From Deltaproteobacteria bacterium (GTDB taxonomy: Bacteria > Desulfobacterota > Binatia > HRBIN30 > JACQVA1): 64,000 nucleotides of DNA. Position 1 is the stretch's first letter. Every line of letters begins with the position of its first letter. The stretch is from contig JACOST010000028.1 of the NCBI GenBank assembly GCA_016178705.1, positions 4,951-68,950 on the forward strand, given 5' to 3'. Below, in pieces: positions 17,745 to 51,252 of this stretch. Made by a program: the position numbers and the translations under genes. Under the pieces are notes generated by a model, which ran no database searches, was not told where the DNA came from, and saw only the letters and a list, made by a program, of their open reading frames with translations.

Positions 17745-19304
17745 TCAGTTCAGGTCGAAGTCTGTCAGGCCATTGGTTCCCGGCACACCGGCGGGCGACG
17801 ACGCATCCGCTTTGGCGATGATGATCCCGCCGAAGAAACCCTGAAAGGGGAGCGCTCCATAGTACGCGAGTTGCTGGCCGTCGTGGCTGTACGCCGCCAT
17901 GCTGTTGGGCAGGATGATGGTGCCCGGCTGCGGGGTCTCGCCCGATCCATTGGGGTTGATGAACCAGATAAGCTGTCCCGTCGGCCGAGTGGACTGGAAC
18001 GCGATGCGCTGACCGTCCGCGCGCAACACCGGGAACTCATCGCGGAAGCTGTTGTTGGTCACGCGGGTGATGTTGGTTCCGTCGGGATTCATCAGATAGA
18101 TCTCCAGGTCCTCGGCCTTTGAGTCGTGCGCGATGTGGAGGGTCGAGGCGAACACGATGCGATTGCCAACCCAATGCGGCGAGTTAAATCGCTCGCCCGC
18201 GTCCGGCAGGATCGTCGTCGAGCCCGACCCGTCGGCGTTGATGACCTTGATCCGACCACGCCCCACGCCGTCGACAAAGACGATGCGATTGCCGTCAGGA
18301 CTCCACGACGGCTGTCCCACGTCGGACTCGTCCGGCGTCAGGTCGGCGCGTCCGGAGCCATCGGCGTTCATGGCAGAGATATGGTAGCGCAAGCCGCCGT
18401 TTTGGTCGCGCACACTTGCCGACCAGACGATGCGCATCCCGTTGGGACTCCATTCCGGATCGCGGTCGAACGCATCGGTGGTGTTGGTGAGATTGACCTT
18501 CCCCGATCCGTCGGTGTTGAGCAGCACGATATCGTTGACCAAGCCCGCATCGGGAGCGGCGCACACGAGGCGCTGGCCGCCCACAGTGCCGGTGGTCGGG
18601 GTGCGAGTTGGCGACGGTGTCGGCGTTGGGCTGGAATTGCTCACCGGTGTCGTAGGCGTGGCAGTGGCAGGCAGACGGGAATGCGTCGGCGTCGGCGTGC
18701 TGCCGTCCCCGGCCGCCACGGTTCCAGAAAAGGGCTGGCCGTTGATCGATATCATCAAGCTGCCACCACCCCCACCCAGGCCTGGCAATGTGCCGCTGAT
18801 GCTCACGTCGATGGTCCCGCCGTTGCCGTCGGGAATACTGCCGGTGACCGTGAAGACGCCGGTGTCCAAGTTGACGTCGCCGGTGATCGGACCGGAGGCG
18901 ATCACGGCCGACGCGCCGCCGAAGAAACCGGCCGCTGCCGCGTCGCGAATAGCGAACGTCCCGGTGACGCCTCCCGTACCGCCCACAGTCAGCGTCGCGG
19001 TGGCGCGGCGCCCATCGTTGAGCATTGCGGCGCCGAAGAACTGGCCAGTGAACGGACAGCTGTTTAGGGCGTTGTTCACGGCGACAATCAGCTCTTCAAC
19101 AGTCACTTCATTGTCGTGACCGGCATCGAACGACGGACACTGCTGCAGCGCCGTTGTGCCGAGCGCGATGTTGACGCCCAGCACCAACTCCTCGACGGTG
19201 ACCGCTCCATCGCTGCTGCAGTCGCCGTCGCATGCGCCCGAGGCCCAGGCACTCGGCTGCGCCAACGACATCGCCAGTATCACCGCAACAATCAGCTTCA
19301 ACAT
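17745..19304 (-). CDS. Secreted multidomain protein. It has a signal peptide, a pair of dockerin/EF-hand-like Ca-binding repeats, a Gly-rich beta domain, a Thr/Pro linker and a TolB-like PD40 beta-propeller
   Basis: Signal peptide MLKLIVAVILAMSLA. Two DGDCSSDGAVTVEEL / DAGHDNEVTVEEL repeats. PTPTPSPTRTPTT linker. Repeated DPEWSPNGMRIV / QPSWSPDGNRIV PD40 blades. Strong RBS GGAGGAGG. Confidence 0.8.
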   Translation of the reverse strand: MLKLIVAVILAMSLAQPSAWASGACDGDCSSDGAVTVEELVLGVNIALGTTALQQCPSFDAGHDNEVTVEELIVAVNNALNSCPFTGQFFGAAMLNDGRRATATLTVGGTGGVTGTFAIRDAAAAGFFGGASAVIASGPITGDVNLDTGVFTVTGSIPDGNGGTIDVSISGTLPGLGGGGGSLMISINGQPFSGTVAAGDGSTPTPTHSRLPATATPTTPVSNSSPTPTPSPTRTPTTGTVGGQRLVCAAPDAGLVNDIVLLNTDGSGKVNLTNTTDAFDRDPEWSPNGMRIVWSASVRDQNGGLRYHISAMNADGSGRADLTPDESDVGQPSWSPDGNRIVFVDGVGRGRIKVINADGSGSTTILPDAGERFNSPHWVGNRIVFASTLHIAHDSKAEDLEIYLMNPDGTNITRVTNNSFRDEFPVLRADGQRIAFQSTRPTGQLIWFINPNGSGETPQPGTIILPNSMAAYSHDGQQLAYYGALPFQGFFGGIIIAKADASSPAGVPGTNGLTDFDLN

Positions 19305-19371: not shown

Positions 19372-19397
19372 TGAACAGTGTTCAGTGGCGGGTGAAC
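19372..19397. promoter_or_regulatory. Candidate operator: palindrome TGAACAGTGTTCA plus a downstream GTGAAC half-site, ~70 bp upstream of the start of 17745..19304
   Basis: Seen in sequence. Paralogous arrangement to 24197..24223. Confidence 0.55.
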
Positions 19398-19413: not shown

Positions 19414-22400
19414 TCAGAACTGCCAGCGGATCGGCAACCGCGGATCGGGGCGGTAGCTGCAGTAGGTCCCGGTCTTGATGGTGGTGGCGAGGTAGCGCCC
19501 AAGGTGGGCATCGCCGTCGCTGATGCGCTTGATCGTGGTCTTGATGGCGCGGGTCACGTTCACCCGCGCACGTTCGGCATCGGCGGCGCGTGCGGAGCCG
19601 CGGTTACCCAAGCCTGCGCCGGCCGCCAGTTGGTCGGCGAACATCTCGATCTCTTCGCGCAGTTTGCTCGCGCGCCCGAGGTCGTTAAATCGAGTCGCCT
19701 CGTCCAATTGGTCGCGCAGGTCTTCGATGCGCTGCTTGTCGGTGGTGCGTGCGCGCCCTTCGATTGCTGTCGCTGATGCCGTCGCCGGCGCCGCTAAATC
19801 AGTGGCGTGGAACTCGCGGCCGGGATGCTGCAGCAGTTGGCTGAGACAGCGCAGCCCCTTGGAATCCTTGAGGCGCAACAGAGTCGCGCCGCTACCGACG
19901 CTCCAGTACTGTCCCTCGAAGTGAAAGAGGCCGCGCACGCTGTCGAGTTGGTTGTCCTTCGCAGGTGACTGCTGGTGGTCAGAACCCGCGTGCGGCTCGG
20001 GTTGCCTGCGTTTGCTCTGCGGGCTGATCGTCCGAGCGGAACGCACGAGCCGGAGGCCTCCGCTCGCCGCCGCAACCGGGATCGGCTCTTCCAGTTCAGC
20101 GACAGCATGATCGCCCTCGGTGCGTACATCCAAGGTGCGCAGCTGCATCGCGAGGCTGACCATGCCGAGCGCTTCCGCTGTCGCGAGTGCGTGCGCCGCC
20201 AGGTCGCGCGCGCGCAGATGATCGCCGACGCGGCCGCGCGTCAACAGCGCGCAAGTGTAGGCGTACTGCGTGCGAGCGAGCCATGGTGGGCCGTCCATGC
20301 GGGCGTTGCGCGCCAATGCATCCTCGAAGTGCCGCGCCGCATCGTCCCATCGTGCCATCGTCGCCGCGAGGATGCCGAGATAGTGAGTCGCGGCACCGAA
20401 GCTGACGCTGGCCGCGTAGGCAATGGTGCTATCGACGTAGGGGAGCAACAGATCGTACAAGATGGCCGCGCGTCGATTATCGCGCAGGTATGCGCAGACT
20501 TCGGACAAGTACGGCAACACGCCCAGACGGCGTTCGCGCTGGAGATCGGCAAACTCGTGGTGCGCGACCTGTTCGAACTCGTAGCGGGCTTCCGCCTCCT
20601 GGTCCAACTCGCGGTGGACAAGTGCGAGAAATGTGCGCGGCACAGGGCTGAAGGGATAGCGTTCGACGAACACGTGGAGCATCGGCAACTGTCCTTCCAG
20701 TTGGCGGAGCTCGCGCTGTGCCACGAATGCTTGCACGAGGGGGTTGAGCCGAATCTCGGCGCGCTCGGCGAGCGGCGTGGCTTCCTGCGCGAGGGCGATG
20801 GCCTCGGTCCACTGTCCGCGCCACAGCGCTCGCATTGCGCGCAGGTTCGCGCCCATCCAGCGGTAGCGCGAACGACCCAACGCGGCGGCGAGCGGAGGAT
20901 AGGTTGCCAGCTCGGCGTCCAAACGATCGCCGTCACCGCCGTTCATCAGATCGATCAGGCGCCACATGCGCCCTTGGATCGCCAGCTCGCGGTCGCCGAG
21001 GCGATCGCCGAGTTGCGTAATCTCGTCGGCGATGGTGAGCCGGTCGGCGAGGTAGTCCGACCGCCACAGCACGAAGTGCTGCGCACTCAGCACGTGCGCC
21101 AGCGTCACCGGGTCGGCAAGCTCGCGCGCCATCGCCAGCGCGTGTCCAACCAAGGTGATGCCGCGCTCTCGATCGGAGACCGCCAGTTCCGCTGCCAAGC
21201 GCGCCAGCAAGCGGGCGCGCACAGCGGTCGGATCGCTGCCGAGGCCGGCGAGCGCTTCTTCGATCAGGGCCGCGACGGTGGGATCGGCGATGGATTGCGG
21301 CGCGCCGACCCCGCGGTCGGCGAAGCCGAGGGCGGCGCGCGCGAGCAGCGCCGGCGCCGCTAGGCGTCGAGCGATGGTGGCGGCGTGCGCAAACGTCGCG
21401 CGCGCGTCTTGATCGCGCCCACTGCCGAGTTGCGCTTCGCCGAGTCCGAGGAGCACCTCGCACCCCGCGGCATCCGTTTGGGTGTCGGTGAGGGCGAGCG
21501 CTTCGAGGGCGCGCTCGAACTGAATGGCGGCCTCTTCGTACGCGAACAGCGCGGCGGCGCGCTCCCCGGCGCGCACCGCGTAGCTGATGGCCTGGTGCGG
21601 ATCGCCGAGCGGTGTCGCGTGGAGAAAATGGTGCGCGATCTCGGCGTAGTGGGGTGCGAGATCGGCTGCGTCGAGTCGCTCCAAAATCTCCGCGACCTGT
21701 TGATGCATGCGGGCACGTTCACTCGGCGACAGATCACTGTACAACGTCTCGCGGATCAGCGTGTGCTGGAAGCTGTACCGCGACGATGCTCCGGGGAGCG
21801 TGGTGACGATGGCATTCGTGGACGCCTCGCCCAACAGATCGAGGAGCTGCGCCGCCGGTCGTTCGCACATCGCTAGCAGTGGTGCGAAGTCGAACTCTCG
21901 CCCGAGTACTGCGGCGATGTTGAGAACACGACGGCAGGCCGGTGAGAGTGGGCGCAAGCGCTGGCGGATCGCGTCGCCGACACCGTGCGGAATGGGCAAT
22001 CCATCGGGCGGGATCTCGGACAACCGAGCGGCGTGTTGCACGACCAATGTGCGCACCACTTCGTCGATGAAGAGCGGATTGCCTTCCGTTGTCTGATGCA
22101 CGGCTGCGACCACCGCGCGCGATGGCGCCAGCGCGAAGCCAGCCGTAATGAAGCGCGCGACATCATCGGCCGACAAGCCGCCGAGCGGCACGCGATGTCC
22201 TTCGCGGGCAATCGCCGCCAGCGTCTGCGCACACTCCGGGCGCGACGGCATCTCGATGTCGCGATACGTCCCGGCGATCAGCAGGTGCGCATCGCGCAGC
22301 TCGCGGGCGATGAACTGGAGCAGCAGGAGCGACGGTTGATCGGACGCGTGGAGGTCGTCGAGGATGAGCACAAGTGGACGCGCCGCGCCCGCACGCTTGA

Positions 22401-22926
22401 GCAGCCCACCGACGGCGCCGAACTGAGCGAAGCGCGCGTGTTCGGACGATAGCGCGGGTGGTGTCGGCGCCGGAAGATCCGGTTGCCACTCGATCAACTC
22501 GGGCACCAATTGCGCGATCAGCCCGGCCGTATCGCCGAGCAATTCGGTGCGCGCGGCGGGACCACGATCCCGCAGCACAGCGCGAATGATCTGCACCCAC
22601 GGCCAGTATGCGGGCGCTCCGCCACCTTCCCAACAGCGGCCCCAGAGAACCTGCGCGCCGCGCCGGGCGGCTTCGGCGGTCAGTTCCTCCGCGAGTCGCG
22701 TCTTGCCGATGCCGGGCTCGCCGGCGATGAGGAACACCCGCCCGCGCCCTGCCGCGGCATCGGCCAGTCCGGAGTAGAGTTCAGTGAGTTCGCGCTCGCG
22801 GCCAACAAACGATCGCGCCGTGAGCCGATGGAGCGCCTGGTTTGATTCGTTTTCCACCGGTTGTCCCGCGGCGTGCACTACTCTCGCCGCGGTCGCCTGT
22901 GTAGGTGCGGCGGCCGGGTTGGTCAA
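19414..22926 (-). CDS. Large AAA(AAA_16-like)-TPR regulator with an uncharacterised conserved C-terminal domain (paralog 1)
   Basis: Walker A LIAGEPGIGKTRLAEEL. Walker B LVLILDDLH. Long TPR/helical region. C-terminal ~200 aa (FEGQYWSVGSGATLLRLKDSKGLRCLSQLLQHPGREFHATDL...TTIKTGTYCSY) matches no domain I recognise, but is conserved in the downstream paralog. Confidence 0.8.
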   Translation of the reverse strand: MTNPAAAPTQATAARVVHAAGQPVENESNQALHRLTARSFVGRERELTELYSGLADAAAGRGRVFLIAGEPGIGKTRLAEELTAEAARRGAQVLWGRCWEGGGAPAYWPWVQIIRAVLRDRGPAARTELLGDTAGLIAQLVPELIEWQPDLPAPTPPALSSEHARFAQFGAVGGLLKRAGAARPLVLILDDLHASDQPSLLLLQFIARELRDAHLLIAGTYRDIEMPSRPECAQTLAAIAREGHRVPLGGLSADDVARFITAGFALAPSRAVVAAVHQTTEGNPLFIDEVVRTLVVQHAARLSEIPPDGLPIPHGVGDAIRQRLRPLSPACRRVLNIAAVLGREFDFAPLLAMCERPAAQLLDLLGEASTNAIVTTLPGASSRYSFQHTLIRETLYSDLSPSERARMHQQVAEILERLDAADLAPHYAEIAHHFLHATPLGDPHQAISYAVRAGERAAALFAYEEAAIQFERALEALALTDTQTDAAGCEVLLGLGEAQLGSGRDQDARATFAHAATIARRLAAPALLARAALGFADRGVGAPQSIADPTVAALIEEALAGLGSDPTAVRARLLARLAAELAVSDRERGITLVGHALAMARELADPVTLAHVLSAQHFVLWRSDYLADRLTIADEITQLGDRLGDRELAIQGRMWRLIDLMNGGDGDRLDAELATYPPLAAALGRSRYRWMGANLRAMRALWRGQWTEAIALAQEATPLAERAEIRLNPLVQAFVAQRELRQLEGQLPMLHVFVERYPFSPVPRTFLALVHRELDQEAEARYEFEQVAHHEFADLQRERRLGVLPYLSEVCAYLRDNRRAAILYDLLLPYVDSTIAYAASVSFGAATHYLGILAATMARWDDAARHFEDALARNARMDGPPWLARTQYAYTCALLTRGRVGDHLRARDLAAHALATAEALGMVSLAMQLRTLDVRTEGDHAVAELEEPIPVAAASGGLRLVRSARTISPQSKRRQPEPHAGSDHQQSPAKDNQLDSVRGLFHFEGQYWSVGSGATLLRLKDSKGLRCLSQLLQHPGREFHATDLAAPATASATAIEGRARTTDKQRIEDLRDQLDEATRFNDLGRASKLREEIEMFADQLAAGAGLGNRGSARAADAERARVNVTRAIKTTIKRISDGDAHLGRYLATTIKTGTYCSYRPDPRLPIRWQF

Positions 22927-22972
22927 GAGACGCGAGTAGCAACAAGGAAGCGGGCAGGCGTAAACGAGAAGA

Positions 22973-22998
22973 GTCGGCCCGCCTTGCGGCGGGCCGAC
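22973..22998 (-). terminator. Putative intrinsic terminator downstream of the second dockerin-like gene
   Basis: Perfect hairpin gtcggcccgcc-ttgc-ggcgggccgac. On the minus strand it is followed by TCTTCTCGTTT. A second GC hairpin lies at 23006-23040. Confidence 0.45.
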
Positions 22999-23056
22999 CG
23001 GTTCGCGGCTCGGCGCACTTCGGGAGAGCGCGCCGAGCCGTGAATAGGAAGATTCG

Positions 23057-24160
23057 TCAGTCCTTCGTCAAAGCGATCGCGAGCGCCAGCGGATGAAAGG
23101 GATCGCTGAACGAAACCTTTGAATACTGGCCGGCCAGACCGCCGGGGAAGAGCGAGTTCATAGTGAGGTTCTCGTTCGAGCTCCCGCCCGTCTTGTTGTA
23201 GAAAAATGCCCGCGGGCTCGCCACGGTTGCAATCACCGATGCGGTCGAAAGGAGATTCTTCTTGAGATCGGTGATCTTCAACTGCCCGCTGACCACTTCA
23301 ACTTTGATCTGCACTTGCCGATGATCGTTGGTCAGGTCGTTGTCGGCGTGACCGCTCCACGTACCGATCAAGTCGGCCGCGATACCGGGCGGATTGATGA
23401 GGCCGGTGGTCGGCGTCGCCGTCTGCGTCGGCAGATTGGTGTGCGTCGGGACCGGAGTGTTGGTCGGTATCAGTGACGTTGGCGTGATGGTCGGCGTCGG
23501 TGTTTGCGTCGCCGTCGGCGGGTGTGTTCGCGTCGGCGTAGGAGTGCTGCCGTCGCCGGTGACGATCGAACCCGTGAACACGGTACCGTCCAGGTTGACG
23601 CTGAGTGACCCGCCGCCGTGGAGACCGGGGAACGTACCGCCGAGATGGACGTTGTGAGTGCCGTCGCCGTCGGTGAAGCTGCCGTCGATGCTAAACGTGC
23701 CATTGTCGAGGTCGACCGAGCCGCTCAGCGACACGATCGCGATCACTGCGGCCGCGTTGCCCTGATCGAAGAGCGACGCCGACGCGGCTGAACGGATCGT
23801 CATGGTGCCGGTGACTTGGCCGTTGCCTTGTGCGACCAGATTGATGATGCCGGTCTGGCCATTGGCGAGCGCGACGGTACCGTAGAACTGGCCGGTGAAC
23901 GGACACGTCCCCAAGGCGTTGTTGACGGCGAGCACTAGCTCTTCAACTGTGACAGACTGGTCGTTGTTACTGTCGAATTGGTTGCACTGGGTGACCAAGA
24001 TGCTGCCGAGAGCGATGTTGACGCCCTGCACCAGCTCTTCGACCGTGACGACTCCGTCACTGTTGCAATCCCCATCGCATCCGGCGGCCAGCGCGCGTGG
24101 GCCGGTTGCTGCCAGTCCCAGCGCGGCCAATACGATCAACGTCCCGAATCGCTTGATCAT
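23057..24160 (-). CDS. Secreted protein with an N-terminal dockerin/EF-hand-like repeat pair, a Gly-rich beta domain, a Thr/Pro linker and a different ~130-aa C-terminal domain (paralogous N-terminal half to 17745..19304)
   Basis: Signal peptide MIKRFGTLIVLAALGLAATG. CDGDCNSDGVVTVEEL and DSNNDQSVTVEEL repeats. TPTPTRTHPPTATQTPTPT linker. RBS GGGGAGGA. Confidence 0.75.
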   Translation of the reverse strand: MIKRFGTLIVLAALGLAATGPRALAAGCDGDCNSDGVVTVEELVQGVNIALGSILVTQCNQFDSNNDQSVTVEELVLAVNNALGTCPFTGQFYGTVALANGQTGIINLVAQGNGQVTGTMTIRSAASASLFDQGNAAAVIAIVSLSGSVDLDNGTFSIDGSFTDGDGTHNVHLGGTFPGLHGGGSLSVNLDGTVFTGSIVTGDGSTPTPTRTHPPTATQTPTPTITPTSLIPTNTPVPTHTNLPTQTATPTTGLINPPGIAADLIGTWSGHADNDLTNDHRQVQIKVEVVSGQLKITDLKKNLLSTASVIATVASPRAFFYNKTGGSSNENLTMNSLFPGGLAGQYSKVSFSDPFHPLALAIALTKD

Positions 24161-24196: not shown

Positions 24197-24223
24197 TTGA
24201 ACAGTGTTCAATTCGGTTGAACG
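24197..24223. promoter_or_regulatory. Candidate operator: perfect palindrome TTGAACAGTGTTCAA plus a downstream TTGAAC half-site, ~40 bp upstream of the start of 23057..24160
   Basis: Seen in sequence. Near-identical to the site at 19372..19397. Confidence 0.55.
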
Positions 24224-24434: not shown

Positions 24435-27400
24435 CTACAAGCGCCAGCTCTTCGGCCAACGTGGATCGGGTGTGTAGGAACAGAACGTGCCGGTCTTGAT
24501 GGTGGTGCTGAGATGCCGGCCCAACGCTGAATCGCCGTCGGCAATTCGTTTCAGCACCGCTTTGATGGCGCGGGTGACGTTGACGCGAGCGCGTTCGGTT
24601 GCCGATGGCCCGCTGCGTGTACGACCGTGCAGACCAACCGCCCGCGCGAGTTCGCGCGTCAGAAACTCGATCTCGTTTTGTGTGCTGGTAATCCGCCCGA
24701 GGTCGTTGAAGCGGGTGGCTTCTTCCAACTCTGCGCGAAGACTTTGCAACTGGCGCTTGTATGCCGCCCGTGCTTGCGGGTCCAGCAGTGCCCCAAGGTC
24801 GCCGAGATTGCCGGCGCGCAACCCGAGTTGTTGCCGTTGCTCGTCGCTGAGTTGGTCGATCTGCGCCGCGGCGGGAGTCACACTGTCGGGCTTGTGAGCG
24901 ATCAAGTCGAGCGCATGAAATTCCCGGCTTGGGTGGCGCAAGAGATGTGCGATGTAGCGCAGACCCTTGGTGTCCTTGAGGCGGAGTGGGGCCATCCCTT
25001 CGCCGACGGTCCAGAACTCCCCTTCCAGACGAAAGCTGCACTCGGCAGTCGTAGCGCCGGTGGTCGCCGGGGAATGCTGCGGTGGAGCCGCGGTGATGGC
25101 TCGCCCGCGGTGTTTCGCCGGGAAACTCAGCACGCGGCCGCGAGTGGAAGCGCCCGACGGCTCCGCATCGTGCAGCGCGGAGGCATCGCCGCTGGCGAGC
25201 GCGCGGGTGATCGGTTCGCGCTGCTGCGCCGATGACGGCTCCAGACGCGCTACGTCGGCCAATGCTTGCGCGCGCTCGGCGAGCGGCGTCATCCCCAACT
25301 CGCGCGCGGTGTCGTGGGCGTGCTGCAACAGATCGCGCGCGTGTTCGCGGGAATTCGCGGCACGGAGCGCGGGCCCCGCATCCACTAGCATGCGAGCGTA
25401 GGCGTACTCGGTGGCGGCCACCGCCGGCCGGCCTCCGGCGGCTAGACTGCGCGCGCGCGCATCTTCGAAGTGTTTCGCGGCCTCATCCCATCTCTCCAAG
25501 GTTGTGGCCAGGAGACCGAGGGCGTGGAAGCCCGGGCCGAAGCAGTGCCGCGGACCGAACGAGATGAAGCGCGAACCAAACCGGAACAGTCGCTCATACA
25601 GCAGGGCCGCCGCGTGGCGATCGCCGAAGTGCGCGCACAGCTCCGCCAACCACGGCAGCATCGGTAGGAGCGCGTTGGTGCGCACGAGATCGACGAAGTC
25701 GTCGGCCGCCAGGCGACCGTACTCGGCCCGGGCCTCGGCGTCGTGTCCCTGGTCGATCTGTATCAACGCCAGCGCGCAGCGGATGATCGGCACGTGCGGC
25801 ATCTGTTCGACCCCGCGCCGCGCGATCATTTCCGCGACCTCGTACTGGCCGAGCGCCCGCTTCGCCACGTAGGCCTGAAAGCCGACGCTGCCCAGCGCAG
25901 TGTCGTCGCGCACCCGCTCGGCGAGTGCGCCAATCTCTTGGCCAAGCGCGTCGCTTTCGGCGAAGCGCCCGAGCCACAGGGCACGCATCGCTCGCAGCAT
26001 GATGGTGTTGCTGAGGTAGCGGGGTTGGCGCAGCTCGTCGGCGAGTCGACTGCACGCGTCGAGTTCGCGTTCCCACTCGCCGCCACCCACTCCCATCTCA
26101 ATGACGTCGAGCAACCGCCAGGTGTGCGCTTGCAGTGCAAGCTCACGATCGTCGGCACTCTCGGCGAGCTGAATGCCCTCGTTGGCGAGGCTGAGCCGCT
26201 CGTCGACGTCGGGCGAATCCCACAGCGCGAAATGGCGCGCATTGACGGCGTAGGCCAAAGCCGCCGACTGGCCGCAGCGGCGCGCCATCTCGACCGCTTG
26301 CCGGCTCAGTGCGGCGCGCCGCTCCTCGGCGTCCGAGAAGTACAGTTCGGCCGCCAGCCGCGCCAGTATCCGTGCGCGCAGAGGATGGTCGTGCTCGGCC
26401 AACCGCACCAGCGCTTCTTCGAGCGCGGCCACCAGAACCGGGTCGACGACTCCACCGCGCGGCAGTCCGTGACCGATGCCGCCGAGCGCGAGCACCGCCC
26501 GCGCGAACGAGTCGGACGCATTCGCGTACCGTGCGCGCTCTGCCGCACGCAGAAACGTCTCCCGCGCCTCGCTGGTGTGCCAGGCGCGCGCCTGCGCGTT
26601 GCCCAACGCCAGCAGCAGCTCGAACTCCCGCTGGGGGTCTGGGGCCCCGAGGACGAGGGCGTCGAGAGTGCGTGTGTAGTGCGCTGCCGCGTCTTCGTAC
26701 GCCAACAAGTCCGCCGCGCGGCGCCCGGCGCGCTCACCGTAGGTGATGGCCTTGGTCAGGTCGCCGGCGGGCGCGGCCTGGAGAAAATGATGGGCGAGCT
26801 CGGCGACATGGGCGTCGGGGTCGGTGGCCGACAGCGTCTCCAACACCTCGCCGATGCGTTGGTGCAAACTCAAACGTTGTGCCGCCGGCAGATCGTCGTA
26901 CACGGTCTGCCGAATCAGCATGTGCGTAAAACTGTACCGAGTGGTGATCCCCGGTAGCTTGGTGACGATGCCCGCGGTGATCGCTTCGCTGAGGATGTCG
27001 AGGACGTCGGGTGCGGGCAGCTCGGACACCCGTTGCAGCGTCAGCAGATCGAAGTCGCGACCGATCACCGCGGCTATGCTCACCACGCGCTGACAGGTCG
27101 CCGACAGCGGTCGCAGCCGCTCGTGCGTGACTTCACGAATCCCGGCTGGAATCCTCAGGCGCTCCGCGGTCGCATCAGCGAGTGTCAGGTCGCGTCCTTC
27201 TGCCAGCAGCCAGCGCACGACTTCATCGACGAAAAATGGATTGCCGTCAGTGGTGCGGTGCAGGGTCGTGATGACCGCGGGCGGTGGCGCGATCACAAAC
27301 GTGCGTTGAATAAAATGAGCGACGTCGGGTTCGGGCCAGCCGCTGAGTGGTAGGCGGTGGCCGTTGCGGGCCACGTCGCTCAGCAGGCGCGCGCACTCAG

Positions 27401-28166
27401 GTTGACGTCGCACCTCGACCTCACGGTAGGTGCCGATCAGCAGCACTCGCGCGCTGCGCAGTTCCCGTGCGGCGAACTGCAGCAACAACAGCGACGGGTC
27501 ATCGGCCGCGTGCAGATCGTCGAGCAGGATCACGAGCGGCTGGTCCACTGCCACCCGCTGCAGGAACGTGGTCGTCGCATCGAACAACGGAAAGCGGGCC
27601 TGTTCGGACTCGATCGTCGACGCCTGCGATCCGGCCGGAATGCCGGCCACGCGCTGTCGCAGGTCGGGCACCAGGGACGCGATGCACGACGCCCCGCCGC
27701 CGAGATGGTGCGCAAGTGCGTGTGGATCACGGTCGCGGATCAACGCGCGCAGGATCTGGATCCACGGCCAAAAGGCCGGCGCGCCGCCGCCTTCCCAACA
27801 CCGGCCCCACAGCACCTGCGCGCCACCGGCGCTCGCCGTTGCGGCGAGTTCTTCCGCCAGCCGCGTCTTGCCGATGCCCGGCTCGCCGACGATGAGGAAG
27901 ACGCGGCCGCGCCCGTTCAGCGCGTCGTCGAGTCCGGTGCGTAGCTCTGTCAGCTCGCGGTCGCGGCCGACGAAGGCGCGCGTGCCCGGGCGATCGGGGT
28001 CGGCGCTGGTGGTTGTCTGCCGAGGGTCACTCACGTGGGGTTGGTTAGTACGTGATCGGACGCATACGTCAAGAGACGAATGCCCGAGTCGCCGACAATC
28101 GCGGACGCGCTGTCCGTGGTTTCGCTTTCGGCGGGCTCGCGCTAGGGATGCGAGCCACAGTGCCAC
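24435..28166 (-). CDS. Large AAA(AAA_16-like)-TPR regulator with the same uncharacterised C-terminal domain (paralog 2). The true start may be the in-frame GTG at ~28034
   Basis: LIVGEPGIGKTRLAEEL, LVILLDDLH and TPR region are collinear with paralog 1. The C-terminal FRLEGEFWTVGEGMAPLRLKDTKGLRYIAHLLRHPSREFHALDL...TTIKTGTFCSY matches paralog 1. Confidence 0.8.
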   Translation of the reverse strand: MALWLASLARARRKRNHGQRVRDCRRLGHSSLDVCVRSRTNQPHVSDPRQTTTSADPDRPGTRAFVGRDRELTELRTGLDDALNGRGRVFLIVGEPGIGKTRLAEELAATASAGGAQVLWGRCWEGGGAPAFWPWIQILRALIRDRDPHALAHHLGGGASCIASLVPDLRQRVAGIPAGSQASTIESEQARFPLFDATTTFLQRVAVDQPLVILLDDLHAADDPSLLLLQFAARELRSARVLLIGTYREVEVRRQPECARLLSDVARNGHRLPLSGWPEPDVAHFIQRTFVIAPPPAVITTLHRTTDGNPFFVDEVVRWLLAEGRDLTLADATAERLRIPAGIREVTHERLRPLSATCQRVVSIAAVIGRDFDLLTLQRVSELPAPDVLDILSEAITAGIVTKLPGITTRYSFTHMLIRQTVYDDLPAAQRLSLHQRIGEVLETLSATDPDAHVAELAHHFLQAAPAGDLTKAITYGERAGRRAADLLAYEDAAAHYTRTLDALVLGAPDPQREFELLLALGNAQARAWHTSEARETFLRAAERARYANASDSFARAVLALGGIGHGLPRGGVVDPVLVAALEEALVRLAEHDHPLRARILARLAAELYFSDAEERRAALSRQAVEMARRCGQSAALAYAVNARHFALWDSPDVDERLSLANEGIQLAESADDRELALQAHTWRLLDVIEMGVGGGEWERELDACSRLADELRQPRYLSNTIMLRAMRALWLGRFAESDALGQEIGALAERVRDDTALGSVGFQAYVAKRALGQYEVAEMIARRGVEQMPHVPIIRCALALIQIDQGHDAEARAEYGRLAADDFVDLVRTNALLPMLPWLAELCAHFGDRHAAALLYERLFRFGSRFISFGPRHCFGPGFHALGLLATTLERWDEAAKHFEDARARSLAAGGRPAVAATEYAYARMLVDAGPALRAANSREHARDLLQHAHDTARELGMTPLAERAQALADVARLEPSSAQQREPITRALASGDASALHDAEPSGASTRGRVLSFPAKHRGRAITAAPPQHSPATTGATTAECSFRLEGEFWTVGEGMAPLRLKDTKGLRYIAHLLRHPSREFHALDLIAHKPDSVTPAAAQIDQLSDEQRQQLGLRAGNLGDLGALLDPQARAAYKRQLQSLRAELEEATRFNDLGRITSTQNEIEFLTRELARAVGLHGRTRSGPSATERARVNVTRAIKAVLKRIADGDSALGRHLSTTIKTGTFCSYTPDPRWPKSWRL

Positions 28167-44665: not shown

Positions 44666-47600
44666 TCAGTCCGCATCCCACGCGACCGCGTGGATTCGCT
44701 GCGGTTCGGTGATGCCCTTGAGCGCTACCTCGCGAGGCGCGCCGAAGCGCGCTGCCGTGTCGCCGGTGGCCGCCTGCAACGCCGCCGACACCAGGATCTC
44801 ACCGCCTTGCGCCGTGCCGGCGATGCGCGCGGCGAGCACGACGTTCTTGCCGAAGAAGTCGTCGGCCTCGCGAATCACTTCGCCGGCGTGCAAACCGATG
44901 CGGACGCGCAACGGCTCGTCCGCATGCCGTTGATTGTAGGCGGTGAACCCTCGTTGCATGGCGATGGCGCAGTGCAGGGCGCGCCGCGCACTCTGGAAGA
45001 CGATCATGAAACCATCGCCTTGCGATTTCACTTCGACGCCGTTGTGGGCTGCGACGTGCTCGCGCACGATCGCGTTATGGGCGCGCAACACGTCGAGCCA
45101 TTTTCGGTCGCCGAGACGCTCGTTGATCACGGTCGAACCCTCGATGTCGCTGAACATGAGCGTGACCGAGCCGTCGCTCGCCGCAACCGAACGCAGATCG
45201 GGGCGGTGGCGTTGCACGTCCGCGGCGACGACCTCGATCGAGGTGGTCATCGTGCCCGACTCCACGCCTTGCGCGCGCAGCTTGAGTGCCAGCGCCATGT
45301 CGAGCCAGCCCTTGAGCCCGAGTTCCTGCGACGTGGCGAGCGCCGCGCCGAGAAGGACGCGCGCCTGCTCACGATCGCCCGGCCCGTCGCGGTCGAGCCG
45401 CATGCGAGCGTAGTCGATCTGCGTGCGCGCTTCCCACGCGCGCGCGCCGAGCCGGCGATCCATCGCCAGCGCGTCTTCGAAGTGCCGCGCCGCGCCCTCG
45501 TAGTAGCGCATGACGCCCGCTAGGTTACCGAGGGCGCGCGTGGCTGCGCCGTAGGTGGTGGCGTGGGCAAAGTGTAGATACAGTTGTTCGTACGGCAACA
45601 GAGTCCGGTACAGCTCTTTCGCACACTCGGAGTCTCGCAGCAGCGTGCAGGTGTCGGCGAGGAGCGCAAGATTCATCAAGTAGTTGCTGTCACGTAAAGT
45701 TGCGAAGCCGGCCTGCGCGATGCGATCGAACTCCGCCCGCGCTTCCGCGTCGCGAGCGAGCTCGGCTAGGTAGCAGGCGAGATGGATGGAGTAGCCCTCG
45801 ACATTCGGGTACAGATCCCGGCCGCGGCGGGTGCCGCGTTCGACCTCGGTCAACCGACCTTGGAAGCGCCGCAGCGCGCCGACCTGCGTAACGAAGACCT
45901 GAAATGCTGCTTCGGGCGCATGCTCTCGTCGCCCCAATGCGGCCTGAATGCACCGTTCCGCTTCATCGAGATGGCCTCGCCACAGAGCGCGGTCAGCCAA
46001 CGTCTGATCCACAATGCGGACGAAGTCCCGTTGTCTGAGCTCGACCGCCAGACGCTGCAAATGAACAAGCTCACGATCCACGCCTTCGCCGTCTCCGCTC
46101 CGAATGCACTCGCGGAGGATGTTGGTCCGCGTGCGGAACTCCTGCTCGCGGTCACCGGTCTCGACAGCCAAACGCAGCGACTCGGTCAACAAGCCCCGCC
46201 GCTCGTCGCTCCGTACCGACAAGCCGAGGAAGAACACGCTGGCTTGCAAATGAATGGCAACCCGGAGCGACTCAGGGTCGTCAATCGAGCGCGCCAGGTC
46301 GATCGCATGCCAGAGTCGAGCATCCCGGTCGTCATTCGTTTCGACCCAACCGCGGACCACCGTGAGCGCGTACAGTATCCGCACGCGCAGCAGGGTGGGG
46401 GCATCTCCGAGTCGCTCCATCGCCTCGTTGAGAGCCTGGCTGCGCTCATCGATCGCGGACATGCTGAAAGGCGTCCCCACATTAATGGCCAGCCCGAGCG
46501 CGGCCCGCGCGAAGAGTTCCGCGTCATCCAGTTCGCGTGCGAGTGCGAGTGCACGCCGATCAGCCTCGTCCGCCTTCGGCACCGAGCCGGAGCAGATTTC
46601 CGCCGTCGCGAGCGCGAGCAGGATCTCGCACCGGCGCCGGCCGTCGACGGTCGTGCCGACCTCAAGAGTCTGCAACGCCCGCTCGTAGTGGTTGGCGGCT
46701 TCCTCGAAGGCGAGCAGGGCGCTCGCGCGCTCGGCGGCGCGCACCGCGTAGTCGACGGCCTTGCCGACGTCGCCGCCGGGCGCGGCCTCGCAGAAGTGAT
46801 GCGCCAGCTCGGCGAGATGCGGCTCGGGCTTGGTGCCGTAGAGCGCTTCGAGCACCTCGGCGGCGCGGCGATGTGAGCGAATGCGCTGGGCAGTGCGCAG
46901 CTCGCCGTAGAGCGTCTCGCGGATCAACGCGTGCGAGAAGCGGTAACGGCCGGCAACCGGCGGCAGCGGGGCGATGATGCGTGCGGCTTCGGCTTCATCG
47001 AGCGCTTCGGCAACTGCGTCGACGGACAATTCACTGACGCCGGGGAGCACGCGCAGCTCGAACTCACGACCGAGTACCGCCGCGATCGTCAGCACCTGGT
47101 TGCAGCGTTCGGAGAGCGTGCTGAGTCGCCGGCCAATCACTTGCCGGACGCCTTGCGGAATCTCGACGCTCCACGATGCCACGGTGTCGGCTCGATCGAG
47201 ACGCCCGTCCGACTGTAAGAGGCGCACGACCTCGGTGATGAAGAAGGGATTGCCTTCGGTCTCGCGGTACACCGCCTCTACGAGTGCAGGTGGTGGTGTA
47301 CGGCCGGCGGTCAACTCGATGAAGCGCGCCACGTCGTCGCCGCTCAAACCGCGCAACAGCACACGTTCGCCGCGCTGATTGCGTACCAATTCGGCGAGCG
47401 TCTGTTCCAGCGGATGCTGGCGGCCGAGCTCGACGTCGCGATAGGTCCCCATCAGCAGCAGACGGGCGTCGCCGATTTCCCGCGCCAGGAATTCGAGCAA
47501 CAGTAACGACGGCTTGTCCGCCCAATGGAGATCGTCGAGCACGACGACCAGCGGTTTGGCGCGCGATGCGTTCCTGAGAAACGTGGTGACGCTTTCGAAC

Positions 47601-49147
47601 AGGCGGAACCGCGCTTGTTCCGGTTCGAGCCGGGGAGCGACCGGCAAGCCCGGTAATCGGTCCCGCACCTCGGAGACCACTTCGGCGATGTCGGCCGCGC
47701 CCGGACCCATCTCCGCGGCGAGCAGTTTCGGTTCGCGCGTGTGCACATAGGCGCGGATCGCGTTGACCCACGGCCAATACGCCGGCGCGCCCTCGCCTTC
47801 GTGGCAACGCCCCCACAGCACTTGCGCGCCACGCATCTGCGCGTAGGTGGCGAGTTCTTCCGCGGTGCGGGTCTTGCCGATACCAGGTTCGCCGACGAGG
47901 AGAAGAATCCGGCCGCGGCCGGAGAGTGCGTCATCGAAGGCGGCGCGCAGTTGCTGGGTTTCCTTGTCGCGCCCCACGAAAATGCCGCTGGCGAGGCGAT
48001 CCAGTGGATTCACCGCCGGGCTTGACGCTGGTATCACTCCGGCGACGGCGCTCGGAGCGTTGGCGATTTGCGCGAGTCGCTCGCCAACGATCGCCGCGCT
48101 GGCGGGGCGCTGCGCTGGACTCTTCGCGAGCAATTGCAAGGTGAGCGCTTCCAGCTCGCGCGTGATGGCTGGATTGTGCCACGAGGGCGCGACCGGCGGT
48201 GTGTTGATGTGTTGGCTGATCACCGCGACCACATCGTCACCGAGAAAGGGTGGCCGGCCGGTCAGCAATTCGTACAGCAGTGCGCCGAGCGCGTAGAGGT
48301 CGACGCTGGCAGTCACCTCGCCGGACAGGGCCTGTTCAGGTGCCATGTAGGCGGCAGTGCCGACCATCGTCCCCATCTGCGTCAGGCGCGTCTGATCAAT
48401 GTCGAGCGCGAGACCGAAGTCCCCGAGCTTGGCGCTGCCGTCAGCGGCGAGCCACACGTTGCCGGGCTTGAGGTCGCGATGGATGACGCCTCGTGCGTGC
48501 GCGTGATCGAGCGCGAGGCAGATTTGCTGGGCGATGCGCAGGGCGTCGGTGATGGATAGGGGTGCACGGCTATGCGCCGCTACAGACTCTTCGCTGCCTA
48601 CTGCTCTCTGCCTACCGCCTACTGATTCACGCAGCAGATCATCCACGCTGCCGCCAGCCATGTACTGACTGACGATGTAGGCTTGTCCGTCCTCCTCGCC
48701 GATGTCGAAAACGGTGACGATGTGGGGATGATCGCCAAGCCGCGCCATCGCTTGCGCCTCGCGCTGAACGCGCGCGCGGCCCGCGTCGTCGAGCCCTTCG
48801 GTTTTGATCAACCCGAGCGCGACGTCGCGATCGAGCCGATGGTCGCGGGCGAGGTAGACGCGCTTGCGCGCGCCTTCGCCGAGGAGGCGCTGCACCCGAT
48901 AACGTCCGGAGGCGAAGGCAGCAGGCAGGTTGTTCGTGGTTAGGTTGTTGGTTGTTTGTGGAGGAGGGGCACTACCGATTGCGGTCGGCGTACCGGCTCC
49001 CAGTGAGGCACCACATTCGCCGCAGAACTTCTCTCCCGACTCGTTGAATGCTTGGCACTGTGGGCAGCGCAGCGCGAGCAGCGCGCCGCAGTCCGAGCAG
49101 AACATCCGACCTTCACGATTGTCGCGACCGCACGTTGCGCAACGCAT
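44666..49147 (-). CDS. Multidomain signalling protein: N-terminal double zinc-ribbon, Ser/Thr protein kinase, AAA(AAA_16-like) ATPase, TPR region and C-terminal class III adenylyl/guanylyl cyclase
   Basis: CxxC x4 at the N-terminus. HRDLKPGNV and DFGLA kinase motifs. LLVGEPGIGKTRTAEEL. C-terminal VTLMFSDIEGST...GDGFMIVF...RIGLHAGEV cyclase motifs. The ATPase-TPR core is ~collinear with the two regulators at 19-28 kb. Confidence 0.85.
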   Translation of the reverse strand: MRCATCGRDNREGRMFCSDCGALLALRCPQCQAFNESGEKFCGECGASLGAGTPTAIGSAPPPQTTNNLTTNNLPAAFASGRYRVQRLLGEGARKRVYLARDHRLDRDVALGLIKTEGLDDAGRARVQREAQAMARLGDHPHIVTVFDIGEEDGQAYIVSQYMAGGSVDDLLRESVGGRQRAVGSEESVAAHSRAPLSITDALRIAQQICLALDHAHARGVIHRDLKPGNVWLAADGSAKLGDFGLALDIDQTRLTQMGTMVGTAAYMAPEQALSGEVTASVDLYALGALLYELLTGRPPFLGDDVVAVISQHINTPPVAPSWHNPAITRELEALTLQLLAKSPAQRPASAAIVGERLAQIANAPSAVAGVIPASSPAVNPLDRLASGIFVGRDKETQQLRAAFDDALSGRGRILLLVGEPGIGKTRTAEELATYAQMRGAQVLWGRCHEGEGAPAYWPWVNAIRAYVHTREPKLLAAEMGPGAADIAEVVSEVRDRLPGLPVAPRLEPEQARFRLFESVTTFLRNASRAKPLVVVLDDLHWADKPSLLLLEFLAREIGDARLLLMGTYRDVELGRQHPLEQTLAELVRNQRGERVLLRGLSGDDVARFIELTAGRTPPPALVEAVYRETEGNPFFITEVVRLLQSDGRLDRADTVASWSVEIPQGVRQVIGRRLSTLSERCNQVLTIAAVLGREFELRVLPGVSELSVDAVAEALDEAEAARIIAPLPPVAGRYRFSHALIRETLYGELRTAQRIRSHRRAAEVLEALYGTKPEPHLAELAHHFCEAAPGGDVGKAVDYAVRAAERASALLAFEEAANHYERALQTLEVGTTVDGRRRCEILLALATAEICSGSVPKADEADRRALALARELDDAELFARAALGLAINVGTPFSMSAIDERSQALNEAMERLGDAPTLLRVRILYALTVVRGWVETNDDRDARLWHAIDLARSIDDPESLRVAIHLQASVFFLGLSVRSDERRGLLTESLRLAVETGDREQEFRTRTNILRECIRSGDGEGVDRELVHLQRLAVELRQRDFVRIVDQTLADRALWRGHLDEAERCIQAALGRREHAPEAAFQVFVTQVGALRRFQGRLTEVERGTRRGRDLYPNVEGYSIHLACYLAELARDAEARAEFDRIAQAGFATLRDSNYLMNLALLADTCTLLRDSECAKELYRTLLPYEQLYLHFAHATTYGAATRALGNLAGVMRYYEGAARHFEDALAMDRRLGARAWEARTQIDYARMRLDRDGPGDREQARVLLGAALATSQELGLKGWLDMALALKLRAQGVESGTMTTSIEVVAADVQRHRPDLRSVAASDGSVTLMFSDIEGSTVINERLGDRKWLDVLRAHNAIVREHVAAHNGVEVKSQGDGFMIVFQSARRALHCAIAMQRGFTAYNQRHADEPLRVRIGLHAGEVIREADDFFGKNVVLAARIAGTAQGGEILVSAALQAATGDTAARFGAPREVALKGITEPQRIHAVAWDAD
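48594..48624. repeat. TAGGCAG-like heptamer array embedded in-frame inside the kinase domain of 44666..49147
   Basis: ctgcctactgctctctgcctaccgcctactg encodes VGGRQRAVGSEE on the minus strand. Confidence 0.7.
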
Positions 49148-50015: not shown

Positions 50016-51038
50016 TTACTGGGTGTTGAGTTCGACGCGACGGTTCTGCTGCATCCCGTCGGCCGTCTTGTTGGTCGCCACCGGGTTTGCCTCGCCGAAG
50101 CCGACGATCTTGACTAAGCGGCTCTTCGGAACGCCACCCTTCTCCAGGTACTCGGCCACCGAGTTCGCGCGCTGCTCGGAGAGGTGTTGGTTGTACGCGT
50201 CGCCGCCGCGGCTGTCGGTGTGACCTTCGACCGACACGTTCACGTCACCGTTCTCCTTGAGCGTCGAGATCGCCTCGTCGAGAATCGGCTTCGCATCAGC
50301 TCGGATATTCCACTTGGCGGTGTCGAAGTGGACGCCGCGGAGCACGATCTTCTTCTTCATCGGCGCGGGCGGTGGCGGGGCTGGTGCTTCCGCCACGACG
50401 GGGGCAGGCTTCGGTGCCGGCGGTGGCGCATTGAAGGAGTACTTCATCGAGATGCCACCGGTCAGCCACTGCGCGTCCGATGGACCCTGTTGGTCGGGTT
50501 GTTGACCGATCAGTTGGTCCGGCTTCGGCGACATGTAGGCACGGTTCCATCGCCCCGACACGCCGACTGCGACTTGCGGCGTGAGGTTGTAGTCGAGGCC
50601 GCCGCCGACCGAGAAGCCGGGCGCTGAGTGTGTAAGGCTGCCGCTGACGCCGGCAAAGTATCCACCTTGCGCCGTCGCGTAGAACTCGAAAAGGTCGCCG
50701 AGCGGCAGTGACAAGCGCGGACCGACCGCGCCGCCGAGCACCGTGGTCATTTGGTTCTGGTTGTCGAGTCGGTGAGCGATGTTGGGGCGACTATCGTTGT
50801 CAGGCTCCAACGTGGTGGCGAGAAGCTGCGCTTGCACGCCGAGGTACTTGTTGAACATATATCCGGCGAACGGATTGCCGGCGACGCCTTCCTCTGCGTG
50901 CGCGAGGAAGGCATCGTTCGTCGGTTTTGCATAGCCAATGTCGACGCCGATATACGGGCCCTCGGCGGCACGTACGGACGACGCGACGGCCAATAGGCCT
51001 ATCGACAGCGACGCAAGAAGCGTTCGTGAACGTTTCAT
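50016..51038 (-). CDS. OmpA family outer-membrane protein (beta-barrel N-domain, Pro-rich linker, OmpA_C peptidoglycan-binding domain)
   Basis: Signal peptide. C-terminal NVSVEGHTDSRGGDAYNQHLSEQRANSV...RRVELN. Confidence 0.85.
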   Translation of the reverse strand: MKRSRTLLASLSIGLLAVASSVRAAEGPYIGVDIGYAKPTNDAFLAHAEEGVAGNPFAGYMFNKYLGVQAQLLATTLEPDNDSRPNIAHRLDNQNQMTTVLGGAVGPRLSLPLGDLFEFYATAQGGYFAGVSGSLTHSAPGFSVGGGLDYNLTPQVAVGVSGRWNRAYMSPKPDQLIGQQPDQQGPSDAQWLTGGISMKYSFNAPPPAPKPAPVVAEAPAPPPPAPMKKKIVLRGVHFDTAKWNIRADAKPILDEAISTLKENGDVNVSVEGHTDSRGGDAYNQHLSEQRANSVAEYLEKGGVPKSRLVKIVGFGEANPVATNKTADGMQQNRRVELNTQ

Positions 51039-51252
51039 ATGCACCCTCCTTAACGCTATTGGCAGACGGAACAACTGCGACTGTTGGGCTCCGCTCATCG
51101 TACCCATCCTCAACCTACCCGCTTCGGCAACTAGAGGACTTCGAGCAAGAAGTCAAGTGCAGAAGCTGCTGTAAGTAGGTAAACAGTCGTGTCTATCTAG
51201 TCTTGAAGCTCGGCCGTGCAATGCCCGGCGCCGGCGGTGGACATGACCGTCG

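Follow-up and report, generated by a model that had tools for sequence, protein, structure and literature searches.

Dockerin-like calcium-loop modules on secreted proteins of Candidatus Binatia and their linkage to cohesin homologues

Two nearby genes on the minus strand of a 64,000-nt stretch of DNA, here called the window (Deltaproteobacteria bacterium; assembly GCA_016178705.1, contig JACOST010000028.1, positions 4,951 to 68,950, forward strand; GTDB lineage Bacteria; Desulfobacterota; Binatia; HRBIN30; JACQVA1), encode secreted proteins that begin with the same short module. These genes, W1 (17745..19304; 519 aa) and W2 (23057..24160; 367 aa), raise the question of whether this module is a dockerin and, if so, what it could dock to. 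The module has 59 residues, is bracketed by cysteines, contains two EF-hand-type calcium loops and lies directly after the signal peptide in both proteins. A preliminary description had interpreted it as a dockerin-like repeat pair, and this interpretation is supported by the present analysis. The module is very probably a calcium-loop tag with a dockerin fold, and the gene linkages seen in related genomes incline us slightly towards the view that it binds cohesins.

The repeat-pair motif is present in both secreted proteins as it had been described, although the interval then given for it (17745-19304) covers only W1, and the second protein lies at 23057-24160. A six-frame scan of the window finds the VTVEEL-type repeats in the W1 and W2 open reading frames (ORFs) only, two in each. 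The module occupies residues 25-83 of W1 (19056..19232, minus strand), where it follows the signal peptide MLKLIVAVILAMSLAQPSAWA with its AXA-type cleavage site (19242..19304, minus strand; read from sequence), and residues 28-86 of W2 (23903..24079, minus strand), where the signal peptide likewise ends in an AXA-type site. Its elements are, in order, C-x-GDC, loop 1, a helix, a Cys-containing linker, loop 2, a second helix and a last Cys. A hidden Markov model (HMM) built from 13 homologues, with both window proteins left out, gives 101.5 bits for W1 and 96.9 bits for W2, and the best of 200 shuffles reaches 8.7 bits, so that a chance motif is ruled out.

The two halves of the module are internal repeats, with 12 of 23 residues identical in W1 and 15 of 23 in W2 (read directly from the sequence) and 32 residues from the first Asp of loop 1 to the first Asp of loop 2. 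Across 109 family members both loops follow the pattern D-x-[NDS]-x-[DNS]-G-x-V-[TAS]-[VI]-x-E, which is the canonical EF-hand ligand pattern; ligand positions 1, 3, 5 and 12 and the Gly at position 6 are kept in both. The GVNIALG helix after loop 1 is invariant in the 15-sequence seed alignment and 93-100% conserved across the 109 members, and the second repeat ends in an AVNxAL helix after loop 2. Four cysteines are invariant or nearly so, two in the initial C-x-GDC, one in the linker and one at the end (alignment columns 4, 8, 35 and 62; W1 residues 25, 29, 56 and 83; found in 106, 109, 109 and 105 of the 109 members, respectively). To our knowledge, these cysteines have no counterpart in classical dockerins; dockerin geometry would presumably place three of them together at one end and the fourth at the opposite end.

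To address the fold, W1 residues 22-86 were modelled with AlphaFold on the basis of 136 sequences; the model has a predicted local distance difference test (pLDDT) value of 91.5. DSSP assigns coil to model residues 1-15, helix to 16-26, a short helix to 32-38 and helix to 48-60. This is the topology of a dockerin, i.e., loop-helix, short helix, loop-helix; loop 1 lacks a preceding helix and begins 3-4 residues past the signal peptide, or behind a Pro/Thr linker. In a Foldseek search of 350,542 PDB chains, the 25 best matches are all cellulosomal dockerins (TM score 0.57-0.67, root-mean-square deviation (rmsd) ~3 Å, probability 0.69-0.98), whereas calmodulin, S100 and polcalcin EF-hand proteins compare with the model at a TM score of only ~0.3 (0.26-0.40) and an rmsd of ~10 Å.

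Sequence profiles give a different classification. The Pfam cut-offs are 22.9 bits for Dockerin_1 (PF00404), 25.4 for EF-hand_1 and 25 for EF-hand_6. The W2 module alone scores above threshold with EF-hand_1 (28.7 bits, in two stretches) and EF-hand_6 (25.9 bits), the W1 module stays below it (15-17 bits for the EF-hand profiles), and 36 of 92 family proteins match an EF-hand profile at E<=1e-3. A precomputed PF00404 match exists for just 1 of the 120 family members listed, and the best PDB match of the module by sequence is the EF-hand protein Asr1131 (9qsb, 5e-5). Since the profiles say EF-hand and the structure says dockerin, we file the module as a predicted dockerin-like fold with EF-hand-type loops, a dockerin candidate that fails PF00404 membership. 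The absence of any dockerin or EF-hand profile match together with an unrelated predicted fold had been named as the outcome that would speak against a dockerin; as W2 passes EF-hand_1 and the predicted structure matches dockerins, that reading survives.

The module belongs to a large family. Among 1.84 billion cluster representatives searched with its profile, 7,999 match at E<=1e-10 and 11,116 at E<=1e-3. In GTDB, taken as one genome per species, a single peptide pattern leads to 333 confirmed sites, and the best 79 loci, which were analyzed further, come nearly all from Candidatus Binatia metagenome-assembled genomes (MAGs) or from entries with the older label 'Deltaproteobacteria bacterium'. 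One of these MAGs, JBGOUW01, a close relative of the window's organism, has at least 17 loci with at least 20 module ORFs. The 79 loci plus the window contain 117 module ORFs. The module lies directly after the signal peptide in 56 of the 117 module ORFs and 0-5 residues from the stop codon in 57, and the N-terminal and C-terminal copies constitute one family (mean identity 0.578, 0.600 and 0.585). Its cargo domains are FG-GAP (9), PD40 (4), NHL (3), matrixin (3), subtilase, trypsin, NAGidase, cupredoxin and Ig-like, so that the non-cellulosomal character of the partner domains first noticed in the window holds across the family. There are also stand-alone copies that consist of signal peptide and module only (P0015, P0016, P0106). 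Because of the extreme-terminal placement, the diverse cargo and the membership of both termini in one family, this is the distribution of a portable tag and not that of a catalytic or sensor domain. Where family members have been named at all, the usual names are 'hypothetical protein' and 'Ca2+-binding EF-hand superfamily protein'. Some proteins carry 2-5 modules, such as P0165 (1378 aa, 4 modules), P0168 (1554 aa, 5 modules), P0167 and P0173, the last of which combines two modules with cohesin-like domains; multi-module proteins could be cross-linkers or adaptors.

What, then, could the tag bind? Cohesin is the one domain that recurs in linkage with the module. Cohesin-like ORFs occur in 14 of the 79 module loci, and the 16 ORFs contain 29 cohesin-like domains, adjoining modules or fused with them. 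These ORFs are true cohesin homologues: Pfam Cohesin (PF00963) scores above threshold in P0011 (26.0), L063 (26.4) and L076 (29.0) and is the sole family match in six more; a local cohesin profile matches cellulosomal cohesins in the PDB over the full domain length (8.3e-11); and the AlphaFold model of the cohesin-plus-module protein P0137 (pLDDT 92) has only cohesins among its top 50 matches, with E down to 6e-7. The linkage is reciprocal. In 57 metagenome loci picked by cohesin patterns alone, derived from a tighter cohesin alignment, a module ORF was found in 35, mostly one or two genes directly upstream of the cohesin ORF or within the same ORF. Several of the module-less loci are short contigs, and four of them (L090, L097, L099, L102) have no upstream sequence because the cohesin ORF starts at the contig end.

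The clearest form of this linkage is a three-gene operon that recurs in Binatia-type genomes and in metagenomes and is complete in at least seven species-level MAGs. Its first gene encodes an FG-GAP propeller with a C-terminal module, the second a Cys-rich protein with a C-terminal module, and the third a protein in which a signal peptide precedes two cohesins and a Pro/Thr linker connects these to a MYXO-CTERM-type tail. Its genome loci are L018:2167-5968, L063:4657-8850, L076:3749-7483, L029, L065, L015, L061 and L038, the eighth being a variant with a single cohesin; further loci are L082, L084, L093, L098, L100, L106, L113, L117-L120 and L135. The variant L038 comes from the sister MAG of the window's organism, where the cohesin-anchor gene is flanked by module genes. 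Other arrangements include cohesin-plus-module 'adaptor' proteins (P0011, P0137, P0155, L044), a protein with module, cohesin and enzyme (L017) and a 1,442-aa protein (L058:538-4863) that looks like a scaffoldin, since it has five cohesin-like repeats with long Thr/Pro/Ala linkers between them; these repeats were found by the iterated local profile only, and Pfam detects none. L058 comes from a MAG recorded as Mycobacterium sp., a label that probably reflects a binning error. There are, in addition, small proteins of 160-190 aa with a signal peptide and one cohesin-like domain (L009:1727-2287; P0141, P0142, P0145, P0146, P0153) that stop abruptly in a Cys-rich tail (TSGTCGC, PGNCGC, SGSCGC, SGGSGC).

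At the C-terminus of the module-linked cohesin proteins there is a motif with an invariant Cys, followed by a hydrophobic helix and a cluster of Arg residues. With the MYXO-CTERM model TIGR03901 (cut-off 20 bits), L076 (22.7 bits) and L061 (20.9 bits) score above the cut-off and L018 (15.3 bits) below it; the tail is a lineage variant (DDDGC...LLWLRRR), and the scores of other copies lie close to the cut-off or under it. In Myxococcota, proteins with a MYXO-CTERM domain are sorted to the cell surface (PMC11980579; bioRxiv 10.1101/2023.06.07.544157). The likeness to the MYXO-CTERM/myxosortase system belongs to these putative partner proteins and not to W1 or W2, and no MYXO-CTERM-like tail was found in the window. 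The linkage of the module to cohesins, some of them apparently MYXO-CTERM-anchored, is strong indirect support for docking to a surface partner.

The neighbourhood of W1 and W2 suggests how their expression might be controlled. Both belong to a row of four collinear minus-strand genes, STAND2 (24435..28166), W2, STAND1 (19414..22926) and W1, so that a gene for a STAND-type ATPase lies directly upstream of each module gene. STAND1 consists of AAA_16 (Pfam, 1.9e-26), TPR (TPR_12) and about 170 C-terminal residues without assignment; STAND2 also contains AAA_16 (1.1e-25), and the two proteins share 45% identity over 1200 aa (BLASTP). The middle part of both matches the TOMM kinase/cyclase fusion model TIGR03903. 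The same order, STAND and then module gene, recurs in L001, L006 and L011. The window between 16851 and 21410 is collinear with L001 (JBGOUW010000411.1, Candidatus Binatia MAG) at 87% nucleotide identity, which assigns the window to this uncultured lineage, and the exact W1 protein with the same neighbours is found on public contigs, including Logan assemblies (SRR12113389).

A palindrome, TGAACAGTGTTCA, lies 74 bp upstream of the W1 start codon (19372..19384, no strand assigned) and again 44 bp upstream of the W2 start codon (24198..24210, no strand assigned), and is a candidate operator. Its motif, TGAACA-N-TGTTCA, has two copies in the 64-kb window against none expected. Among the 79 loci it is present only at L001:2045-2057, L006:5864-5876 and L011:1286-1298, always in the STAND-module intergenic region, and the conserved block extends to TTGAACACTGTTCA-N5-TTTGAACGCC. 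From this synteny we infer that the STAND protein may control the adjacent module gene through the palindrome. Like MalT/LAL-type STAND regulators, the two ATPases combine an AAA_16 P-loop domain with TPR, and their genes stand beside a putative target with a conserved palindrome in between; unlike MalT/LAL-like regulators, they have no LuxR-type or other DNA-binding domain recognisable by Pfam or PDB searches. The window also encodes a third paralogous AAA_16-TPR STAND protein (44666-49147, minus strand), which matches both over the ATPase-TPR core (phmmer E ~1e-180) and which, as read from its sequence, has N-terminal Ser/Thr kinase-like and C-terminal cyclase-like regions, i.e., the architecture of a TOMM kinase/cyclase fusion.

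Taken together, these data lead us to propose that W1 and W2 are exported by Sec and that the module would then fold around two Ca2+ ions, its cysteines probably forming disulfides that lock the fold. The module would be a portable docking tag for cohesin domains, and the cohesin proteins of the Binatia lineage would be held at the cell surface through a MYXO-CTERM sorting signal; docked on such a surface-anchored cohesin, the propeller of W1 or the other cargo would therefore be displayed or retained at the cell envelope. The STAND ATPase whose gene immediately precedes a module gene would probably turn on that gene via TGAACA-N-TGTTCA. We regard the combination of dockerin-fold docking tag, cohesin partner and STAND-switched genes as fairly probable. 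More tentatively, at a level of belief somewhat short of even, Candidatus Binatia and some neighbouring ex-'Deltaproteobacteria' lineages may possess a large non-cellulosomal cohesin-dockerin surface-assembly system, in which dozens of secreted proteins per genome, among them propellers, proteases, Ig-like and cupredoxin proteins, would carry a hitherto unnoticed Cys-locked EF-hand-type dockerin and attach to MYXO-CTERM-anchored cohesin scaffolds, some of them scaffoldin-like with several cohesins, and in which some cargo genes, W1 and W2 included, would each be switched by a dedicated STAND ATPase via a palindromic operator.

Several results weigh against this proposal. Firstly, the PF00404 search recommended in the preliminary description gives no significant match: the W2 module reaches 12.0 bits (E = 0.26) against the cut-off of 22.9, and the W1 module gives no match. 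PDB sequence searches with a single module and with the module profile return EF-hand proteins, and no dockerin, among the best 60 of 238 matches. Loop position 12 is Glu, as in EF-hands, whereas dockerins typically carry Asp there, and loop 2 of W1 departs from the family pattern with a Gly at ligand position 3, so that this site may be weakened. Secondly, the partner is missing locally. As had been noted before, the window has no cohesin-like ORF (the best of 721 ORFs, searched with filters off, has E = 0.33), and no cohesin gene lies beside the W1/W2 homologues in L001, L006 and L011. The main weakness is that the subfamily to which W1 and W2 belong, defined by the module followed by an orphan domain that we call dom2 (9 ORFs), never adjoins a cohesin in the loci seen; the cohesin link of W1, W2 and their homologues thus rests on family membership only. 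The cohesins of the three-gene operon, moreover, may serve only the two module proteins encoded with them and not act as receptors in general. Thirdly, the ~170 C-terminal residues of the STAND proteins give only noise in Pfam and the PDB, and no DNA-binding domain was identified in them.

Some of these results would suit a simpler explanation, namely that the module is no more than an EF-hand pair that binds calcium, is locked by disulfides and has no docking partner, and that it stabilises or calcium-gates secreted proteins or buffers or senses Ca2+ in the envelope. The Pfam and PDB sequence searches, which give EF-hand loops only, the Glu at position 12, the lack of a cohesin gene near W1 or W2 and the stand-alone copies of signal peptide and module all agree with it. 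We nevertheless consider it unlikely. The predicted fold matches dockerins and not EF-hand pairs, loop 1 has no entering helix, the strict terminal position on dozens of unrelated cargo domains is that of a tag and not of a stabiliser, and the mean identity of ~58% is held whatever the cargo; in addition, the reciprocal operon and fusion linkage to cohesins would be left unexplained.

The module could also be a docking or adhesion tag with a receptor other than cohesin, such as an envelope polysaccharide, an S-layer or an outer-membrane component, or it could mediate Ca2+-dependent self-association. That the subfamily with dom2 is never seen beside a cohesin fits this view, as does the existence of proteins with 2-5 modules, and the very high conservation of the module would suit one invariant receptor of non-protein or housekeeping nature. 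We think it improbable, given that no domain but cohesin is recurrently linked to the module and that cohesin-dockerin is the established partnership for the dockerin fold, known from solved complexes.

Still less probable, and rejected here, is a secretion or sorting signal read by an export or sorting machine, in the manner of PEP-CTERM, MYXO-CTERM or the C-terminal domains of the type IX secretion system. The extreme-terminal position, the lineage expansion with many copies per genome and the invariant cysteines, which several C-terminal sorting signals share (bioRxiv 10.1101/2023.06.07.544157), recall such signals, but the module is N-terminal, after a normal signal peptide, as often as C-terminal and sometimes present in 2-5 copies, lacks a transmembrane segment or basic tail, and is predicted, with pLDDT above 90, to fold into a 59-residue Ca-loop domain. 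Finally, the idea that the first Cys is a lipobox, making W1 and W2 lipoproteins with a chance EF-hand-like remainder, starts from the position of this Cys 3-4 residues past an Ala-rich signal-peptide end (AWASGAC, ALAAGC) and is effectively refuted, because the same Cys is invariant in C-terminal copies that follow a Pro/Thr linker, position -3 is not Leu, Val or Ile, and the ~100 bits against 8.7 for shuffles exclude chance.

The proposed docking tag can be compared with known systems. The module and the type I dockerins (PF00404; 2VN5, 4UYP, 4FL4, 6KGC) are alike in having ~60 residues and two duplicated loop-helix calcium segments without an entering helix, in being portable terminal tags on secreted modular proteins, and in having cohesin homologues in the same operons or proteins. 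Unlike type I dockerins, the module is missed by PF00404, has canonical EF-hand loops with Glu at position 12, four invariant cysteines and a GVNIALG helix, and is N-terminal as often as C-terminal. Its cargo, in contrast to that of cellulosomal dockerins, consists of propellers, proteases and Ig-like domains and not mainly of glycoside hydrolases. Cellulosomal scaffolds are typically anchored by SLH domains or sortase; here the scaffold anchor is of the MYXO-CTERM type, in an uncultured host lineage of high GC content that is presumably diderm. With canonical EF-hand pairs of the calmodulin type (PF00036, PF13405, PF13499) the module has in common the twelve-residue loop D-x-[DNS]-x-[DNS]-G-x-[VI]-x-x-x-E, but, unlike them, it has no helix before loop 1 and is an extracytoplasmic, Cys-bracketed terminal tag.

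Cohesin and dockerin-like modules outside cellulosomes have been reported from all three domains of life (Peer et al. 2009, cited by PMC5244752). The anaerobic methanotrophic (ANME) archaea and the NagH/NagJ complex of Clostridium perfringens (2OZN) are examples. What such modules do outside cellulosomes is described as unknown (PMC5244752). Like these non-cellulosomal pairs, the module and the cohesins of Binatia sit in an organism without sign of a cellulosome. They differ from the reported cases in that the module is a distinct Cys-containing family, missed by the dockerin model and massively expanded in Binatia, and shares a recurrent operon with a double cohesin that carries a MYXO-CTERM-type anchor. 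In the literature we found no description of a Cys-bracketed dockerin family with EF-hand loops, of its expansion in Binatia or of the MYXO-CTERM cohesin operon, and no paper that connects Binatia or MYXO-CTERM to dockerin or cohesin.

The module family thus offers a concrete test case for the role of cohesins and dockerins outside cellulosomes, which PMC5244752, citing Peer et al. 2009, presents as an open question. The module is sharply defined and easily detected, its ~8,000 sequence clusters are missed by current dockerin models, it is greatly expanded in an uncultured and environmentally widespread phylum, and the three-gene operon names candidate binding pairs, i.e., two module proteins and a surface-anchored double cohesin. 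If binding is confirmed, cohesin-dockerin protein display would extend to a presumably diderm lineage and be coupled to MYXO-CTERM sorting, new orthogonal and possibly disulfide-stabilised cohesin-dockerin pairs would be at hand for protein engineering, and thousands of 'hypothetical' or 'EF-hand' proteins could be re-annotated. If binding fails, the module would still be, by its sequence features, a well-delimited new extracytoplasmic calcium-binding module.

The remaining parts of W1 and W2, all on the minus strand, are as follows. In both proteins the module is directly followed by dom2 (18699..19055 in W1 and 23546..23902 in W2), a Gly-rich and beta-rich orphan domain of ~120 residues. In the 79 loci and the window, dom2 occurs in nine ORFs (W1, W2, one each in L001, L006, L039, L041 and L045, and two in L011), every one with an N-terminal module directly before it. 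It gives no Pfam match even at E<=10 and no PDB profile match (best E = 0.1), and a homologue search with module plus dom2 returned 14 proteins covering at most 43% of the query, that is, signal peptide and module, and no relatives of dom2. It may resemble the small beta-barrels of TbpB/fHbp-type surface lipoproteins, a likeness that we do not claim.

In W1 a Pro/Thr-rich linker (18579..18698; read from sequence) leads to a PD40 (TolB-like) beta-propeller without a catalytic domain (17748..18578; Pfam PD40, NCBIfam TolB propeller). The propeller fusion previously reported is borne out by the Pfam scan (PF07676, 68.9 bits against a cut-off of 20.9, E 2.9e-19); against TolB (TIGR02800) the propeller scores 78 bits (E 6.6e-22), far from the equivalog cut-off of 343, and it is not TolB itself. 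In W2 the Pro/Thr linker leads to a small C-terminal domain of 115 residues (23060..23404) that has no Pfam match and belongs to a small family with homologues in L006, L073, L011 and L045. Two dom2 paralogues (L011:2883-4268 and L045:910-2316) have an extra cupredoxin-like insert between linker and C-terminal domain. The W2 protein begins MIKRFG; its start codon is the ATG at 24160, which is preceded by a GGAGG ribosome-binding site; a longer ORF with a TTG start (495 aa, up to 24544) was rejected as an artefact, because the ATG has the ribosome-binding site and yields a normal signal peptide. Between W2 and the next STAND gene there is a terminator-like hairpin (22972..22999, minus strand) with a 12-bp stem and 10 GC pairs, which is weak evidence because such sites are no commoner in this region than in shuffled sequence.

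Other window genes also appear related to the envelope. A gene at 50016-51113 encodes a protein whose sequence, judged by eye, suggests an outer-membrane beta-barrel followed by an OmpA-like C-terminal domain; a gene at 62199-63998, cut by the end of the window, encodes a PD40 and prolyl-oligopeptidase S9 protein without the module; and a gene at 51253-54525 encodes a 1,090-aa AsmA/DUF748 protein.

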